Assembly (NCBI RefSeq): GCF_036588685.1
Contig: NC_086376.1
Location: forward strand, 7,254,001-7,318,000
Source: Mytilus trossulus
Lineage: Eukaryota
Reading direction: 5' to 3'
DNA length: 64,000 bases
The translations under genes and the position numbers were made by a program. Positions 1 to 8,100 of the stretch are shown one piece after another; positions within the stretch are counted from its first letter, which is position 1; every line of letters begins with the position of its first letter. The notes under the pieces are model-generated. The model was not told the DNA's origin. It saw only the letters and a list, made by a program, of their open reading frames with translations, and ran no database searches.

Positions 1-1
1 G

Positions 2-328
2 AATGGAACGTGGGAGTGTGCCCTATTGGAAATGACGTTCGTGCCTGCTTTCGAAATACCCACGCGCAGGGTCTACCTATGTTCCGACATAGTGAGGGAA
101 GAATCGTACGTCAGAGACACGTATTTACCACTACTTCAATCCGTAGCAGTGCGACGGGACGAGACGATGGAAGTCGTCTTCGAGAGACCACTCTACCGCA
201 CGACGAGAGGAGGCGAGGTGACACTATTGGAAATCACCGTCAGAGACGATAGATTACGAGTGTGCCGATTCAAGGACGATCACGTATTCTGCTTGCTGCA
301 TTTTAGAAAAAGAGTTATAAGAGGATAG
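2..328 (+). CDS. Polinton minor capsid protein (penton, PX-like), 5'-partial
   Basis: Frame 2 is open from base 2: NGTWECALLEMTFVP...VYLCSDIVREESYVRDTYLPLLQSV...FERPLY...LEITVRD...CLLHFRK. This matches the recalled G-W-x-x-L-x-E, Y-x-x-x-D-I-V...P-L-L, F-x-x-P-x-Y and C-terminal LHFR motifs of Polinton minor capsid proteins. Confidence 0.78.
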   Translation, partial: NGTWECALLEMTFVPAFEIPTRRVYLCSDIVREESYVRDTYLPLLQSVAVRRDETMEVVFERPLYRTTRGGEVTLLEITVRDDRLRVCRFKDDHVFCLLHFRKRVIRG

Positions 329-358
329 CGGATTCGATATCGAAGTACATGTATAAAC

Positions 359-508
359 ATGGAATGTCCTACCTGCCATAGACGGTTTTCCAGGAGAGAT
401 GTCATGTTGAGACATTATCGCAATCAGCATGGTAATGGGGATACGCCGCCGCCGCCCGTGCCTGCGGTGGTAAACAACCGCCGCCGCCGCCCGTGCCTGC
501 GGTGGTAG
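359..508 (+). CDS. C2H2 zinc-finger/Pro-rich N-terminus, frameshifted from the downstream ATPase ORF
   Basis: ATG at 359 gives MECPTCHRRFSRRDVMLRHYRNQHGNGDTPPPPVPAVV (C-x2-C-x12-H-x4-H), stop TAG at 506-508. The first copy of a ~35-bp direct repeat reads GTAAACAACCG and the second GTAGAACAACCG, so one missing G separates it from the 493..1776 frame. Not in the supplied ORF track. Confidence 0.75.
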   Translation: MECPTCHRRFSRRDVMLRHYRNQHGNGDTPPPPVPAVVNNRRRRPCLRW

Positions 509-1776
509 AACAACCGCCGTCCGGTCCGTTCCTGTTTCGACACCCGTTTACTATGATCGTTTCGGGTCCGACGTCTTGCGGCAAGACGCATTTCGTGGCG
601 AAAGTCCTCCGAGAAGCGGAAGCGATGTGCGAACCGGCACCGCAGAGAATCGTCTGGCTGTACAAGAGGTGGCAACCCCTCTACGACGTCGTACGAGACG
701 GCGTGCACCCGCCGGTGGAGTTTGTGAGAGGCATCCCCGCCGACCTGGAGAGCGACGACTTCTTCGATCCGAGAGTGCGCAACATGGTGGTCCTGGACGA
801 TCTGATGACCCTCGCCAGCAAAGACACCCGCATCAACGATCTCTTCACCGAAGGAAGTCACCATCGAAATCTTTCCGTGATCGCCATCTACCAGAACCTG
901 TATTTTGGAAAGGACCCCACCCAGAGAAGAAACTGTCATTACATGGTCCTCTTTGACAATCCGATCGATCGACAGCCCGTGGCCACCCTGGCACGACAGA
1001 TGTACCCGGGTCGATCCGAACATTTCCTGCGACAATTCGACGAGGCCACGAGAAGACGACACGGTTATCTCCTTGTCGACGTCAAACCGGAGACCCCCGA
1101 GACGGAGAGACTGCGCACGAACGTCCTGACGGGGGCGGGAGAGGAGGAGGAGACGACCCAAACGGAAGAAGTGACCACGAACGATCTGATCGCCTGCGAA
1201 GAATGCGGACTGGTCTTTGTACACCGCCGCGGACTGGAGGAGCATGCGTGTAGCAGGGAGGAGGAGGAAAGGATCTCCAAGGCGAGGAGGCTCGACAGCA
1301 GCGAGGATACCTCCGAATACGACACGGACGAAGACATACTTCCCATGAGCGACGCAGAACTAGAAGAAGCGTTGGAAGGGTTACCGGTGGACGTACGTTG
1401 TGCCGAAGAGTTACCCGCAGACATCTCGCACCGACCGATGACCTATGTCGTCAGCACGGATACCTGCGATGGACCGGGGAAGCATTGGGTGGCGTTTCAC
1501 TTTCCATCCACGGGACCGGCAGAATTCTTCGATTCACTCGGACGTTCTCCGGAGTATTACCATCGTCGCTTCAGGAACGTGCTCATCGCCAATGGACCTC
1601 AATACAGATTCAGTACGACTCAAGTGCAACCGGGATCATCCGATACGTGCAGACTCTATTGTGTACATTTCGTGAAGATGAGATATAGAAACATTAGCAT
1701 GGAAGACATTGTGAAAGATTTTTCCCCTAGTGACTTGATGAGTAACGACGACAAACTGCTTGCATTGTACGAATGA
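493..1776 (+). CDS. Fused Polinton DNA-packaging ATPase (A32/FtsK-HerA type) - zinc finger - adenain-like (C5) cysteine protease
   Basis: Walker A GPTSCGKT (565-588), Walker B MVVLDD (784-801), LFTEGSHHRNLSVI and GYLLVD motifs, then a CEECGLVFVHRRGLEEHAC finger. The protease starts at Met 1345, with GKHWVA (His 1483-1485), FFDSLG (Asp 1531-1533), QVQ and TC (Cys 1648-1650). Confidence 0.88.
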   Translation: MPAVVEQPPSGPFLFRHPFTMIVSGPTSCGKTHFVAKVLREAEAMCEPAPQRIVWLYKRWQPLYDVVRDGVHPPVEFVRGIPADLESDDFFDPRVRNMVVLDDLMTLASKDTRINDLFTEGSHHRNLSVIAIYQNLYFGKDPTQRRNCHYMVLFDNPIDRQPVATLARQMYPGRSEHFLRQFDEATRRRHGYLLVDVKPETPETERLRTNVLTGAGEEEETTQTEEVTTNDLIACEECGLVFVHRRGLEEHACSREEEERISKARRLDSSEDTSEYDTDEDILPMSDAELEEALEGLPVDVRCAEELPADISHRPMTYVVSTDTCDGPGKHWVAFHFPSTGPAEFFDSLGRSPEYYHRRFRNVLIANGPQYRFSTTQVQPGSSDTCRLYCVHFVKMRYRNISMEDIVKDFSPSDLMSNDDKLLALYE

Positions 1777-1780
1777 ATGT

Positions 1781-1786
1781 AATAAA
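1781..1786 (+). terminator. Polyadenylation signal of the ATPase-protease gene
   Basis: AATAAA begins 5 nt after the end of the TGA stop, where GC content drops. Confidence 0.55.
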
Positions 1787-1953
1787 TGTATATGAAACTG
1801 ACATCTGCGTTGGTATTTTTTTTTTCTATTTGCCCCGGACACGATACGATTAATCGGTGATTGACGTTCACACCTTGAAGAGTTGCCTCCCTTTTTGTAC
1901 CAGAGTTCTTCGATATGATCATGTGACCTTGCCTCGAACGTTGAATTGTCAAT

Positions 1954-4049
1954 GTGCACGAATCTGATCATGGGTACATCACTACATGTGACTAAAAATC
2001 TGTCAATTTCTATTTGTTCCATATGTTGTTACCTGGATAACTGTATATGGCAAAAAAGATTAGAAACCAAGGAATCTGATAATACCAAAGATGGGAGAAA
2101 TAATTCTTCCATGTTTTTTTATTTGAACATTTTTTCCAAAAAAATGTCTAAATTTCGAACCGGAAATGTTACATTCCACCACCTTAGATTTTTAGAAGGC
2201 TCTGTATTAAACATGTTTGTGAATAATGAACAGTGCTTTATAAAATGAATAAAACTGACACATGAATTGCCATTTCTTGCACTACAGTCATATTCTATCA
2301 TTTAGTTCAGTCAGAATATATCGTCAAAAAAACTAATCATGTTCATAACAGCGGTGTCCAATAAAACGTTGGAAGAAAATGTCAAAATTATCTTGAATGT
2401 TTACATTCTTAATTAGAGCTACAACTAAAAAAATCATTGTTAATCTAATATTATCGAGCAAGCAGTTGAATTAAGCACGTAGTCTAAAAAGAACAACTAT
2501 CATTGACCACATTGTCAAAAAGGTTTTCGAGGTGTCCAGTTGTTATGAACGTAAAAATACGTAATAAATCCGTTGTTAGCCATGCAATGTTCTCCCCCAA
2601 AATATGGAATGGAACATGCCAGTACACACAAGGTAATGACATAGTTATCAAATTGATGTAACTACACACAGAGATGTGACCACCTACACAACGTTGGTGT
2701 CCGTCCATAGAATGCGTAGTTATGAACGCAAGAAAAGAAAGAGTAGCTAGTTTTAATGAATTTTCAAGATTCTTGTGAACAGTATCAGTGTCAAATGAAC
2801 TTTTTATAAAAGTATAGTAACTATTAAATAAATGTAAAGTAATTAACAGTGTTATAGTCTTTGCAGTTTGGAAAAATTCAGTTTTTTATACCGACTTGGC
2901 GGAGAGGGTCATGGTTTCCATAGTTTTGAACAAGACATATTTTAAAATTTAAACTTGAAATGAAACTTGTTCAACATTGAAACCGAAAATACAACATCCT
3001 CTTTAAGTCTAAATAATATTTTAATGTCAAAATTGTAAATCTAGGATGTATAATAAACTTTAAATAGAGTAAAGTATGCCGTTCATAACAGTTCTCTAAC
3101 ACTAGCTTACAGTATTGGAGTTATGAACAAATGTTGTAAATCTGTTTTTTAATAAATAAAATGGATTACTGGTGCTTCTTTTAAACATATTCGAAAACAT
3201 TTGATGTCTGATTTTATTTTATCACGTTACACATTTATAACTTTTGGCATGAAGATTAAATTTTCGATATCAGCATTGTTAATAATTTGAAGACACATTA
3301 TTTTTGTGTCTGTTGTTATGAACGATTATTATTTGATTATTTTTATATGATTTTGAGTAATAAATGATAAATTAGTTGTTTTTCCAAGAAATCTTATGTT
3401 GTCTTTAAAAGAGGAGTTGTTGAAATTGCTAGCAATTTGCGACTTTCATTTGAATTTTGGGAAAATGTTTTTGTTCATAACCATGATAACGACGGAAGCA
3501 CAGTTTTGAAATATTGTTATGAACGTTTTAAAAATGTCTATAATCATGGTTTTATTAACAGAATGTAAGTTTTTGTTTAGTCCTTAAGCTATAATTTGGT
3601 ATTGTTTTATACAATAAATTAACCTATAAAGCGATTGAAATGTTTGTTTATTCACACAGGGAACATAATGATAGATTTGAGAACAATATTTCTGTTCATA
3701 ACGGTGTCCAAACATTTTATGTATTTTATTTATTACTGTTTCCCCAAAAAATTACAAAGTGGATAATAGTGTGTTAAGGTTGTTCTTGTAAACAGTATAC
3801 ACACCAATTATTGTACTAAAGTTGACCTGGTATCGGTATTTTGAACAAATAAGGACACTGGTTATGAACATAAAAAATATTTTTCACATTAAATAAAAGT
3901 AAGATACAGATTTTCTACAGCTCTATAAATTTGGAAACAATTACTTTGGATATTGGGCTAAATACATAGCCCATAATATTGGTGATTGAATGACTTTTAT
4001 TTTTCAGATACTCTGTAACATAATGTGACCCATGATCAGATTCGTGCAC
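1954..4049. mobile_element. Non-autonomous 2.1-kb TIR DNA transposon inserted into the Polinton (4-bp TSD)
   Basis: 22-bp perfect TIR GTGCACGAATCTGATCATGGGT at both ends. CAAT is duplicated at 1950-1953 and 4050-4053. Many internal GTTATGAAC/GTTCATAAC motifs; no ORF. Confidence 0.85.
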
Positions 4050-4501
4050 CAATCCAAGAGAGAGATATATATACAGAGTTGCTTCCCTTGTTTTGTACCA
4101 GTTTTGAAGTGTATTTGATGATAATCGATAAAATATATAAATGTTTTCTTTGCTGATTCATATATATGATTTCTGTATTTCGTCTACTTTTCATCGTGTG
4201 AGATATTTGATAATTTTATTTCAATTTCATTTTAGTTATTCAGATTAATTCATAATAATTAATTTTGACATCGTGTATATTTAAAAGGAACTTCGGACAT
4301 CTAAAATTTCAGCAAATACTACTGGACGTATTATTTCGAGGATTTATCTCAATTTATTTATTTGGTATGTATTTTACACAGTTTATCGATGATAAATAGT
4401 GAATAGAAATTACATGCTAATCAGTGATATTAATTAAGTCTAATTAATCTAGATGAAGTGCGTTTCTACATGTATCAATAAACGAACATCTGGATTTCGT
4501 G

Positions 4502-4675
4502 TCAGAGTGATGACCTCCATCTGTTTAAAGAGAGAGAAATTCCCTTTCTCGTTGGGATTAACTTTCCGTCTTTCAGCTCCCATTCTCGCACATCAATACT
4601 GATTTGGTCTTTCCATTCTTTGGCCTGTACAAATCTTTTATTATTTAACTCTATGTTACAACGTGCGTTCTCCAT
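4502..4675 (-). CDS. PC4/Sub1 (p15)-like ssDNA-binding protein, possibly C-terminally truncated
   Basis: MENARCNIELNNKRFVQAKEWKDQISIDVREWELKDGKLIPTRKGISLSLNRW matches the PC4 signature (R-F/Y-V...IDIRE...P-x-R/K-KGISL...W). It stops shortly after the Trp. Confidence 0.75.
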   Translation of the reverse strand: MENARCNIELNNKRFVQAKEWKDQISIDVREWELKDGKLIPTRKGISLSLNRWRSSL

Positions 4676-4689
4676 CTCGGCCAATTGAC

Positions 4690-4726
4690 GAATGATGAAG
4701 TGTTGAAGAAAAACTATCAATTTATA
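4690..4726 (-). promoter_or_regulatory. TATA box plus Inr-like motif upstream of the PC4-like ORF
   Basis: On the minus strand, TATAAA (4726-4721) is followed ~30 nt later by TCATTC (4695-4690), then ATG at 4675. Confidence 0.4.
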
Positions 4727-4923
4727 TTCTCATTTCATAGTGACCAACATTGACACGTTGTATCCAAATAAGTTCATCGGGTGAGGCTGAAAAGTTAGTG
4801 TTACCTCCTCGATCAACATTTGCCTGGTCATATAATCAAATTTGGATTCAGATCGACAATGACTTCGTCGTCGTCGTGTGGAAGTATAGGTTTTCACAGA
4901 TCGTTATGATCAAATAAGTTTAT

Positions 4924-5124
4924 GTGTAATCGAAACGAAAGGTCATGACTTCTGTTGATTGACAGGGAGGGAGGGGCATGACCATATTTATCCGTGCCAG
5001 CGTGCCTACCTTTTTTTCATAGACAGTGTAATCGAAACGAAAGGTTATGACTTCTGTTGATTGACAGGGAGGGAGGGGCATGACCATATTTGTCCCGTGC
5101 CGGCGTGCCTACCTTTTTTCATAG
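4924..5124. repeat. Two ~100-bp direct repeats in the Polinton subterminal region
   Basis: GTGTAATCGAAACGAAAGG...GGGAGGGAGGGGCATGACC...TTTTCATAG at 4924-5022 and 5026-5124 (period 102). Confidence 0.9.
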
Positions 5125-5151
5125 GCCTAAAACTGATCACTCCCTACTACT

Positions 5152-8100
5152 CACTGTGTATCATCGCCACCGGAAATTGGGTACTAACGAAGCGGAGAGA
5201 AGCAGAAAAAAAAAATAAACAAGTTAAGAATTCATTCAATTTAAAGCATTTCCACTCATTTGATGAGGGTGTCGCTTAAGAAATGATTTTCTGATATATA
5301 ATTCTTTTAATTATTAGGCCAATAAGTACAAAATAAATACAAGATTTTGTGTAATACGCTAAAACTTGCCACTTAGTACCGGAAAATTTCGAGGTCTATC
5401 GTCCTCTGTAGCCCCGTTCTCAATATATTGAACTGTTTTTCATTATTTTTCCAGACACGATTTTAGAATATTATAGTGTGGCATCATATTTAGTGAAATT
5501 TGTTGTCAAAAAGATGCATTTTAAAGAATATAGACCACAAAAAATAAATTCTAGGGTACGGCAACTTGCTCGTGTTTAAAAATTTACTGTATGGCAACTT
5601 GTTTTCAACTGTATGGCAACTTGCTAATTTTAGAATAGTTATTTACCGCGTCCTTTCAAAGAAAATAAAGTATTAAGTTCAAATATCTCAGATGGGGGAG
5701 GGGGGGGGGGGGTCTTTTCAAGGTTTAAATTTTTTAAAACTGTTATTTGACTGATAAATTTTAAAAACTTAACTGTTTTCGACCCACTGTCTGTAATCTG
5801 TTTTGTTAAAATTTGCAATGATGTTAACTGTTTATTTGAAATTGAGATTCTTGTTATCTGTTACTTTATACTTAAAGTGTTCACTGTTTTTGACATTATT
5901 TTCTCTGTTAACTGATCTTAACTGTTATTTACAAGAATGACATTAAAATTTGCTGTCCATCTCTTACTTAACGTTGCTTCCGCAAAGGAGTGACATTAAC
6001 AGCATAATTATATGTAACTGTACATGTCTTTAAAAAAATCTTCAGTGAGTATAGTAAATCCTTGATTAAATTGAGAATGGAAATGTCAAAGAAACAGAAG
6101 CTCGACCAAATAGAAGAAACAACCCAACGCAGCGAGAAAATTATGCACTAGGGTGGGTGTCAAGTCACAGATAGGAAAAAAACTAAGAATTGACACTCGT
6201 AATTTTTTAACACCCTCTTTCCTCTTTCCCTTCCCTTCTAATAAATAAGGCTTAATATTTAAGCTATGCATGTGTATATTTATGGAAAGAGAATCGTCCA
6301 TAGATTTGATTTCCAATAGTAATAATGGTGAAATATAATCTCTTTTTTTGTGAAACTATGGCAACAATGAGCAATTATTTGATACCAAATATTGCAAAAT
6401 AGGGGGTTGAACATGTCACAAAGATCTGAAAAATTTGGTCCAAAGGAAAATTTCAATCAATAAGAGTGATACCTTTCCTAATACCATAGACATATATCTA
6501 TCAAGAGGTTAAAAAAATCATATGCATTTCTGCTGTTTTTTTCCATGAAATTGAATTGAAAAGATCGAGCGTCGAATCTTGGTTGAAAAAAAATACAAAA
6601 TTTTTCAAAATGTATGGCGGTACGGATAGGAACGCTTGGACGGTCAAACTGAACAATGGCTTATAAAACATGCTTAAAATAATCTAAATGTTCATATTAA
6701 CCCACTAGGAAGGCTATATTATTATTCAACTATCTAAAAATCAATTCAATTGTACAAAAACGTTCATATTTAGAAAATTCACCATGGCTCGAAACTAAAC
6801 TTGTATGGTATACCTGAAGCTGTCTCCTAAGTGAGCAATCAATTAACTACAAAAGGGGGTCGAAGTTCAATGTTTGTTTCTTGAAACATATAAATGAACC
6901 CAAATTTAAAAAATTAAATAAATACAAGACTTCATAGCTAAGGTTACGGACTCAAGTTGGGTCATGCAGGTGCAACAAATGCGGCAGTGTTAAACATGTT
7001 TAAAGATATCTCATGCCCCTCTTTATACGTCTAACCAATGTAGTTATTTCTGGCTTCTATTTGAAATGTATCCAAAACGTTAAAGGGAAAGGCCACTTCT
7101 TATCCAGCTTAAACCCTGGTCAGTCCTATGACGAAAATAATTCACATGTATATGGAATGTTTGATAAGTTATATCGACCCAGAGTACCTGGATGGAATTG
7201 TGAAAAAATAAAGTACCTTTTCAATTTGCAATTCGTAAATTAACTGAACAGTGTTGGCCTGGTAGAAAAGGCCGAAAAAAAATAGGAATTGGTTCTCAAA
7301 TTGAAATCAAATTTGCTAGTCTAAGAAATTCAGAATGGATCTAAAGATAGACCAAGGCTTCTTTATATCAGCTCAGATGGAGATGAAAGAGTGCTTCAAC
7401 TTGTGACACCTTACATGTTACTTTCTGATTTTACACTGGTTTTGATGATTTAAAATTAAAATCAGTAAACCTTCGTAATTCATTTCAATAAAATCATGTA
7501 AGCAATGAGTCGTATGAATACCCTGACTGCAATGTAACTATAATTTATAAAAGCCCCCGCCATTAAAAAAATGTTCGCGCCCTATAGTATTCACTCATTC
7601 TATCTGTTTGTTACACTTTCCTACGCCATGACGATAACCCAAGTTTTCTTCGATTGATTGACACAAAACATTTACTCAACAATATACATAACCAGAAGAA
7701 GCCTCCCTTTTGGTGTTTGAAGCATTTTCGATTATTCATGACATTCTAGTCTTTTTTCTTAGAGTCAATCACTCCGTCTGCTTTTCCATCAGTTCAATTG
7801 TCTGTCCATGTGTCATTAAAGTTGCTGTTAACTCTTATCAGCATTTAAAATTTGTTGTTATCTGTGTTTGCCAAAATCGAGGTGTTGTTAACATGTTAAC
7901 AGACCCACTACCCCCCCCCCCCCCCCAACCCCCATCTAATTATGCATTAGATAAAATGCATTAGATAGAAACAGACAAAACAATTAATTCGAAATGCAAT
8001 TCACGATTTGTTTCTCCTTACTTTCGATGAAAACAAAGTATTTTCTTAATTCAAAGTTTATTTTTACAAATGAGTCATTTCAGAAATTAAATAACTAAAC

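Follow-up and report, generated by a model that had tools for sequence, protein, structure and literature searches.

Mavericks, also called Polintons, are described as elements of 13–25 kb with (AGT)2//(ACT)2 end motifs, terminal inverted repeats (TIRs), 6-bp duplications of the target site (TSDs) and intronless penton, ATPase and protease genes (available parts of PMC8097293 and PMC4028283), and the available part of PMC8097293 links their end motifs to protein-primed strand-displacement replication. The element analyzed here lies at the start of a 64,000-nt stretch of the Mytilus trossulus genome (the window; NC_086376.1, hereafter C4:7254001-7318000), and the end motifs, TIRs and 6-bp TSD of the Maverick type are all present in it. 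It belongs to a group of mini-Mavericks that share these traits and the intronless morphogenesis genes. The mini-Mavericks differ from described Mavericks in lacking the polymerase gene pPolB, the integrase and the major capsid protein (MCP), in measuring only 2–10 kb, in having the ATPase fused to the protease and in that about half of the copies with both ends are fold-backs. The element is, with near certainty, a real, young, non-autonomous fold-back, and it is not an autonomous Maverick. Our reading, to which we give a probability of roughly 0.55, is that it comes from an old, helper-dependent mini-Maverick lineage, likely copied, integrated and packaged with the proteins of a helper Maverick as a packaging satellite.

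In the available part of PMC4028283, Polinton-1N1_DR, Polinton-2N1_DR and Polinton-N1/N1A/N1B_NV are non-autonomous by name, and those from Nematostella, like the mini-Mavericks, keep penton and ATPase. Unlike the mini-Mavericks, they measure 11–15 kb; the fish elements are without morphogenesis genes, and the Nematostella elements have an MCP and no protease. The nearest gene pattern there is that of Polinton-1_PI, which has no MCP and an inactivated protease but is of full size, 18 kb, and the accessible Table S1 of the same paper holds no element below 10 kb. The available sections of PMC8502044, PMC10294476, PMC11296320 and 10.1101/2023.08.22.554363 contain nothing on such mini-elements; PMC11296320, in these sections, remarks that for relatives lacking an integrase, integration in trans is a possibility. 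No description of palindromic, fold-back, bipartite or satellite Polintons, or of this gene set, was found in the literature searched, which was mostly open-access and had Repbase outside its scope.

Two other kinds of genome invite comparison. Copy-back or snap-back defective genomes, produced by adenoviruses and other strand-displacement replicons, carry an inverted duplication of one end, join at a short inverted homology and depend on a helper. In the element studied here, too, one end is present twice, the second time inverted, and the strands switch at a short homology. The likeness is one of genomic structure alone, and mini-Mavericks differ in being integrated, inherited and re-amplified as families. 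Phage satellites such as P4 and the phage-inducible chromosomal islands (PICIs) are small, lack a main capsid gene, bring their own packaging functions and redirect the capsids of their helpers. Unlike these, mini-Mavericks are eukaryotic and have neither integrase nor replicase of their own, and in them the redirection of packaging is a presumed trait.

The element ends at window position 5151, where the terminal motif ACTACT (5146..5151, + strand) is followed by the TSD CACTGT (5152..5157, +). Its left end, AGTAGTAGGGAGTGATCAG, begins at C4:7251257, outside the window and 2,744 bp upstream, with an identical CACTGT just before it, and the whole element measures 7,895 bp. The outer right arm (4050..5151) mirrors the left end (C4:7251257-7252358) over 1,102 nt without a mismatch, so the terminus at 5151 is genuine. 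An earlier note on this DNA had proposed a Maverick/Polinton-derived insertion with the order penton > ATPase-protease > < PC4 > ACTACT end, and had predicted the left end and its 6-bp TSD; the ends, the TSD and the morphogenesis genes bear this out. The same note took the locus for a complete endogenous virus seen at its right end, with pPolB, integrase and MCP genes upstream, and here it was mistaken. Neither the window nor the 20 kb upstream encodes any of the three, and among the open reading frames (ORFs) of the element no unassigned long frame is left that could be an MCP. An upstream region devoid of core Polinton genes, which the note itself had named as telling against its proposal, is exactly what the 20 kb contain. 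A complete Maverick would share the real terminal motif, TSD and morphogenesis genes, but the left end 2.7 kb off and the missing core genes rule it out for practical purposes.

What the locus holds instead is a fold-back palindrome, with the penton gene at its center and an ATPase–zinc finger–protease fusion plus a PC4 gene in each arm. In element coordinates, positions 1-1102 mirror 6794-7895 with 0 mismatches and positions 1099-2574 mirror 3222-4697 with 2, leaving a non-mirrored center of 647 bp that houses the penton. In the window, the inner right arm spans 478..1953 (mirror C4:7252355-7253830, 2 mismatches in 1,476 nt). Since the arms differ at only 2 of 2,578 nt, the recent integration suggested by the earlier note is upheld, and these two differences point to a very young insertion. 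At a mutation rate near 1e-8 per generation, its age would be about some tens of thousands of generations, with a wide error. One DNA run, which may be the source run, spans the left flank–element junction; no empty insertion site was seen in the DNA runs, two of which do not cover the flank. Contig depths came out about 1.4–2.3 times higher over the ATPase than over the penton, a contrast that carries no weight here, since genes cannot be ranked by depths of this kind.

A palindrome formed in the chromosome after insertion, or by assembly or amplification, would also have nearly identical arms, gene conversion between such arms could mimic the tree described below, and short-read contigs of four DNA runs, among the pieces listed, contain no bridge over the GC-rich junction. 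Such an origin is nonetheless highly improbable. The TSD stands at both ends, a transposon lies in just one arm, and ten fold-backs occupy separate sites with different TSDs, seven of them with a common junction site. In addition, the N-terminus that the junction creates is present in a database protein on a 14.6-kb contig.

The element is one of many. A DNA search with it returned 56 matches, 44 of them at 92–100%, and our survey covered about 20 kb around each of 30 locus groups plus the element itself, 31 loci in all. Both ends and a perfect 6-bp TSD are present at 19 of the 31, every TSD being different; nine of these are linear mini-Mavericks and ten are fold-backs built from two right ends. 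The simplest linear copies, 4.6–4.8 kb long, have TIRs of ~190 bp, PC4, a short zinc-finger ORF, penton and ATPase-protease. Neither pPolB nor MCP occurs in any of the 30 related locus groups, and an integrase-like fragment was found in one of them, outside the element.

Complete elements with both ends from three deeply diverged subfamilies (4.6–4.8 kb; 5,726 bp; 3,309 bp) retain penton > ATPase > protease and are devoid of MCP and pPolB. Relatives that bear an MCP have the order penton > MCP > protease, and in the mini-Mavericks the ATPase occupies the place of the MCP. In trees from a quick search with a midpoint root, the mini-Maverick pentons form one clade (SH-like approximate likelihood-ratio test, SH-aLRT, 99) on the same side as the pentons of MCP-bearing relatives, and the ATPases, one clade with weak support (84), nest among those of capsid-less elements that carry integrase, ATPase and pPolB. 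Given this gene order and these tree positions, the likely origin of the founder is the replacement of the MCP by an ATPase. The fusion itself is old, because full-length relatives at 57–64% identity exist in other records, which rules out a recent deletion artifact. It is also rare, most of the best 150 representatives ending after the zinc finger, and the closest database proteins carry Mytilus names. A metagenome contig carries an intact sister subfamily, which has the right end of the young family via a crossover inside the protease gene; measured against it, the ratio of non-synonymous to synonymous substitution (dN/dS) is 0.20 for the penton and 0.18 for the ATPase, values that indicate purifying selection between the subfamilies. 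Against ten older loci, the proportion of synonymous differences (pS) is 0.67–0.87, with synonymous sites near or at saturation, and that of non-synonymous differences (pN) is 0.21–0.42.

Selection to keep a penton in a lineage lacking a major capsid gene can be understood only if particles are built with the capsid protein of a helper, and it is on this ground that we propose packaging with the helper's MCP. Many open MCP frames are present elsewhere in the genome. In what is the least certain step of the model, the lineage would retain penton, ATPase and protease to act with the helper MCP and so favor packaging of the mini-genome. Ends have also been exchanged: from ~4102 outward, the outer arm of our element derives from a different mini-element family ('A' ends), the original outer 1.05 kb having been swapped for the ends of that small family, and the same join recurs in one other copy. 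A more specific version of the satellite reading, in which old, selected Maverick satellites of 3–6 kb, having lost the MCP, polymerase and integrase genes, use their own penton and fused ATPase-protease to hijack the helper capsid, swap ends to follow helpers and repeatedly throw copy-back genomes as a record of strand-displacement replication, is put forward tentatively.

Several observations weigh against a selected satellite. Within the young burst, omega for variants found in at least two copies is 0.59 for ATPase-protease and 0.33 for penton, compared with 0.78 and 0.68 for singletons, and the underlying counts (shared, 22 synonymous and 39 non-synonymous or stop; singletons, 112 and 290) do not differ significantly (Fisher p=0.22). 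The selection between subfamilies could have taken place in full-length parents that escaped notice. Neither of two raw RNA runs, with about 6% of each sampled, gave reads on ATPase, protease or penton; the few reads over the PC4 region come from a related element, and for two runs presumed to be RNA, the contigs may derive from DNA. The copy studied is already decaying, its right-arm gene frameshifted and a substitution standing beside the catalytic cysteine in both arms. No polymerase-bearing element has ends that match beyond AGTAGT in the stretches tested, and 35 family ends lie at least 1.4 Mb from the 97 pPolB matches, both counts being lower bounds. Finally, among viral contigs no relative of the fusion was found as a free virus, only one distant ATPase.

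These points feed the chief rival, which accepts the same mobilization in trans and regards the genes as passengers, each subfamily being a dead-end deletion product whose full-length parent, either lost or exogenous, was what selection acted on. The absence of significant constraint inside the young burst and the lack of RNA fit this account, as does the short zinc-finger ORF of the linear copies, which resembles the N-terminus of pPolB at 31–43%. Gene-poor derivatives with the same ends have spread too, and non-autonomous Polintons are on record in the accessible Table S1 of PMC4028283. On the other hand, for passengers at least three deletions would have had to spare these three genes independently, and in the parent the MCP would have had to leave its conserved place. 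No such full-length parent was found in the genome, in viral contigs or in 72 metagenome loci, of which 38 of at least 2.6 kb and one shorter were mapped. We consider this explanation possible, though doubtful, and continue to prefer the packaging satellite.

The fold-backs hint at how they likely form. In linear copies, a (GGC)n run upstream of the penton and, about 620 bp away, a (CCG)n run where the ATPase begins make up an inverted repeat. In the studied copy, the (CCG)n side is a 35-36-nt tandem repeat (444..519, +), which provides the inverted microhomology and the junction site, and the junction overlap is 11 nt, GGCGGCGGCGG. Among 15 loci mapped, seven switch strand at this triplet-repeat junction with an overlap of 8–18 nt, five switch elsewhere, some of which may be later deletions of the center, and three show no switch in the mapped stretch. 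A single clade of palindromic arms is rejected by the approximately unbiased (AU) test (p=0.00017; 17 rows vs 9), which indicates that fold-backs arose more than once; it counts against this result that recombination among copies can break monophyly and that the tree was viewed before the test. In five of eight palindromes, each arm has the other as its nearest relative, with starred support; in one the pairing is weak, and the remaining two are unresolved. Because arms pair within palindromes, they were therefore copied from one another in each element, as template switching predicts; later gene conversion from arm to arm could also produce the pairing. A bias of fold-backs toward the right end alone is true of the young family and was dropped as a general rule, two older loci duplicating the left end.

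The mechanism we propose, template switching during protein-primed strand displacement, is modeled on adenovirus. The protein-primed polymerase of the helper would start at the AGTAGT end and displace a strand, then switch template at the microhomology just past the penton and copy back to the same end. Two identical arms would result, and the helper's integrase would insert the product with a 6-bp TSD. Fold-backs are general in this genome: the capsid-less integrase–ATPase–pPolB elements also gave seven palindromes, 4.6–8.7 kb long, five of them with one common center. Inverted pairs of protease, ATPase or MCP matches at C7:33.76-33.78 Mb, C11:22.90 Mb and C11:52.92 Mb suggest that fold-backs occur in conventional Maverick families too. 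As a separate observation, bases 9–19 of the terminus differ among copies yet match between the two ends of each copy, in linear ones too, which suggests end-to-end repair during replication.

The capsid-less elements bear on a further possibility, that of a cooperative split genome in which they, MCP-bearing pieces and mini-Mavericks complement one another as segments. At least four capsid-less elements with AGTAGTCATCC ends, 9–10 kb minus inserts, and one 5.4-kb element with AGTAGTCATCC-type ends that holds penton, MCP and protease could be seen as such segments. But in that lineage the MCP loci are mostly pieces left by the decay of ordinary Mavericks with integrase and ATPase of their own, which weakens the bipartite idea, the ends differ among the supposed segments, and complete Mavericks coexist with them. 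We judge a split genome to be unlikely, and the packaging satellite remains our preferred reading.

If the more specific satellite version is true, Maverick satellites of 3–6 kb would be an animal equivalent of PICIs and other phage satellites. Both particle formation and adenovirus-like strand displacement by animal Mavericks are still mostly inferred, and microhomology fold-backs with homogenized arms are by-products expected of strand-displacement replication. The family supplies targets in the form of junctions, particle DNA and linear extrachromosomal palindromes. Such elements would escape screens set to require pPolB together with integrase, or five core genes.

Other Maverick-like loci in the genome were recorded alongside these families. 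The capsid-less Mavericks, with integrase, ATPase and zinc-finger pPolB only and AGTAGTCATCC ends, are found at C6:20061920-20071962 (L123/L124), at C1:86000527-86009547 (L134) and at L135-L138; in size and ATPase-only content, they resemble P_Pd1.1 in the accessible Table S1 of PMC4028283. ATPase > integrase pairs like theirs are common in marine metagenome contigs. The seven palindromes of this family are L139-L145; five of 8.1–8.7 kb have integrase and ATPase in both arms and a common hairpin center, and two adjoin each other on C12. The 5.4-kb element at L097:558-5945 (C15), with ends of this family, has a penton, an open MCP frame, a protease and pieces of integrase and pPolB, and its locus also holds a nested end of the young mini-Maverick family. 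About 25 loci with a common 1,253-aa pPolB frame represent an unrelated Maverick family, AT-rich and lately expanded in a burst, the ends of which were not found. Two palindromes of 9–10 kb with 'A' ends, L091 and L092, have PC4, an unknown ORF of 137 aa, which is open in L092, and a penton alone at the center; the terminus of L091 is doubled.

Within the window, the gene-bearing start stands out in composition, as the earlier note had remarked: GC content is 54.0% in 1-1780 compared with a mean of 32.5% (standard deviation 1.6, maximum 36.5) in 1,780-nt windows across the remainder, and the ORFs of 1-1780 are without introns. The first 328 nt (1..328, +) are the 3' portion of the gene for a penton (minor capsid) protein of 143 aa; the ATG of this gene lies just upstream of the window at C4:7253897. 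The penton had been called compact, which it is, although ~140 aa is normal for the group. Its AlphaFold model is all-beta, a single jelly roll with a predicted local distance difference test (pLDDT) score of 86.8; the best fold match is an adintovirus protein (TM 0.84, E 1e-9), and another is a capsid chain from PBCV-1 (Paramecium bursaria chlorella virus 1), which we take to be the penton. Exactly 30 nt separate the penton stop (326-328) from the ATG at 359, as had been noted. The TATAAAC reported in front of this ATG does abut it, but it is missing from the sister subfamily and so is not a conserved motif. Conserved in both the young family and the sister subfamily is a TATA-like motif, TTATAAGAGG, at 315..324 (+); in both, the consensus TTATAAGA[A/G]G precedes the start of the penton and that of the ATPase by about 30–40 nt and may act as a promoter.

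The native 5' part of the ATPase, with a C2H2 finger and the (CCG)n proline tract, occupies 359..552 (+), and within the proline repeats of this tract, near 470, the frame that opens at ATG 359 is interrupted. From 553 the right arm keeps a frame of 407 aa (553..1776, +) that encodes an A32-like packaging ATPase, a C2H2 finger and an adenain-like cysteine protease; the mirror arm reads a 452-aa frame whose N-terminus and start were created by the junction. The Pox_A32 and Peptidase_C5 profiles match the fusion, both below cut-off, and the protease part matches S273R of African swine fever virus (E 8e-6) and adenain (E 0.002). Farther out, a gene for a PC4-like single-stranded-DNA-binding protein of 57 aa (PF02229, E 9e-15) lies at 4502..4675 on the − strand, with a second copy in the left arm, and two subterminal 102-bp tandem repeats occupy 4924..5124.

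Between the inner and outer right arms sits a nested non-coding DNA transposon (1954..4049), with perfect 22-bp TIRs that start GTGCAC and a 4-bp TSD, CAAT. This 2.1-kb insertion is confined to the right arm, and when it is discounted, the genes sit ~1.3 kb from the element end. Six further copies exist at 98–99%, and ~9-kb relatives at 78–80% (for example at C6:35.49 Mb) may hold its transposase.

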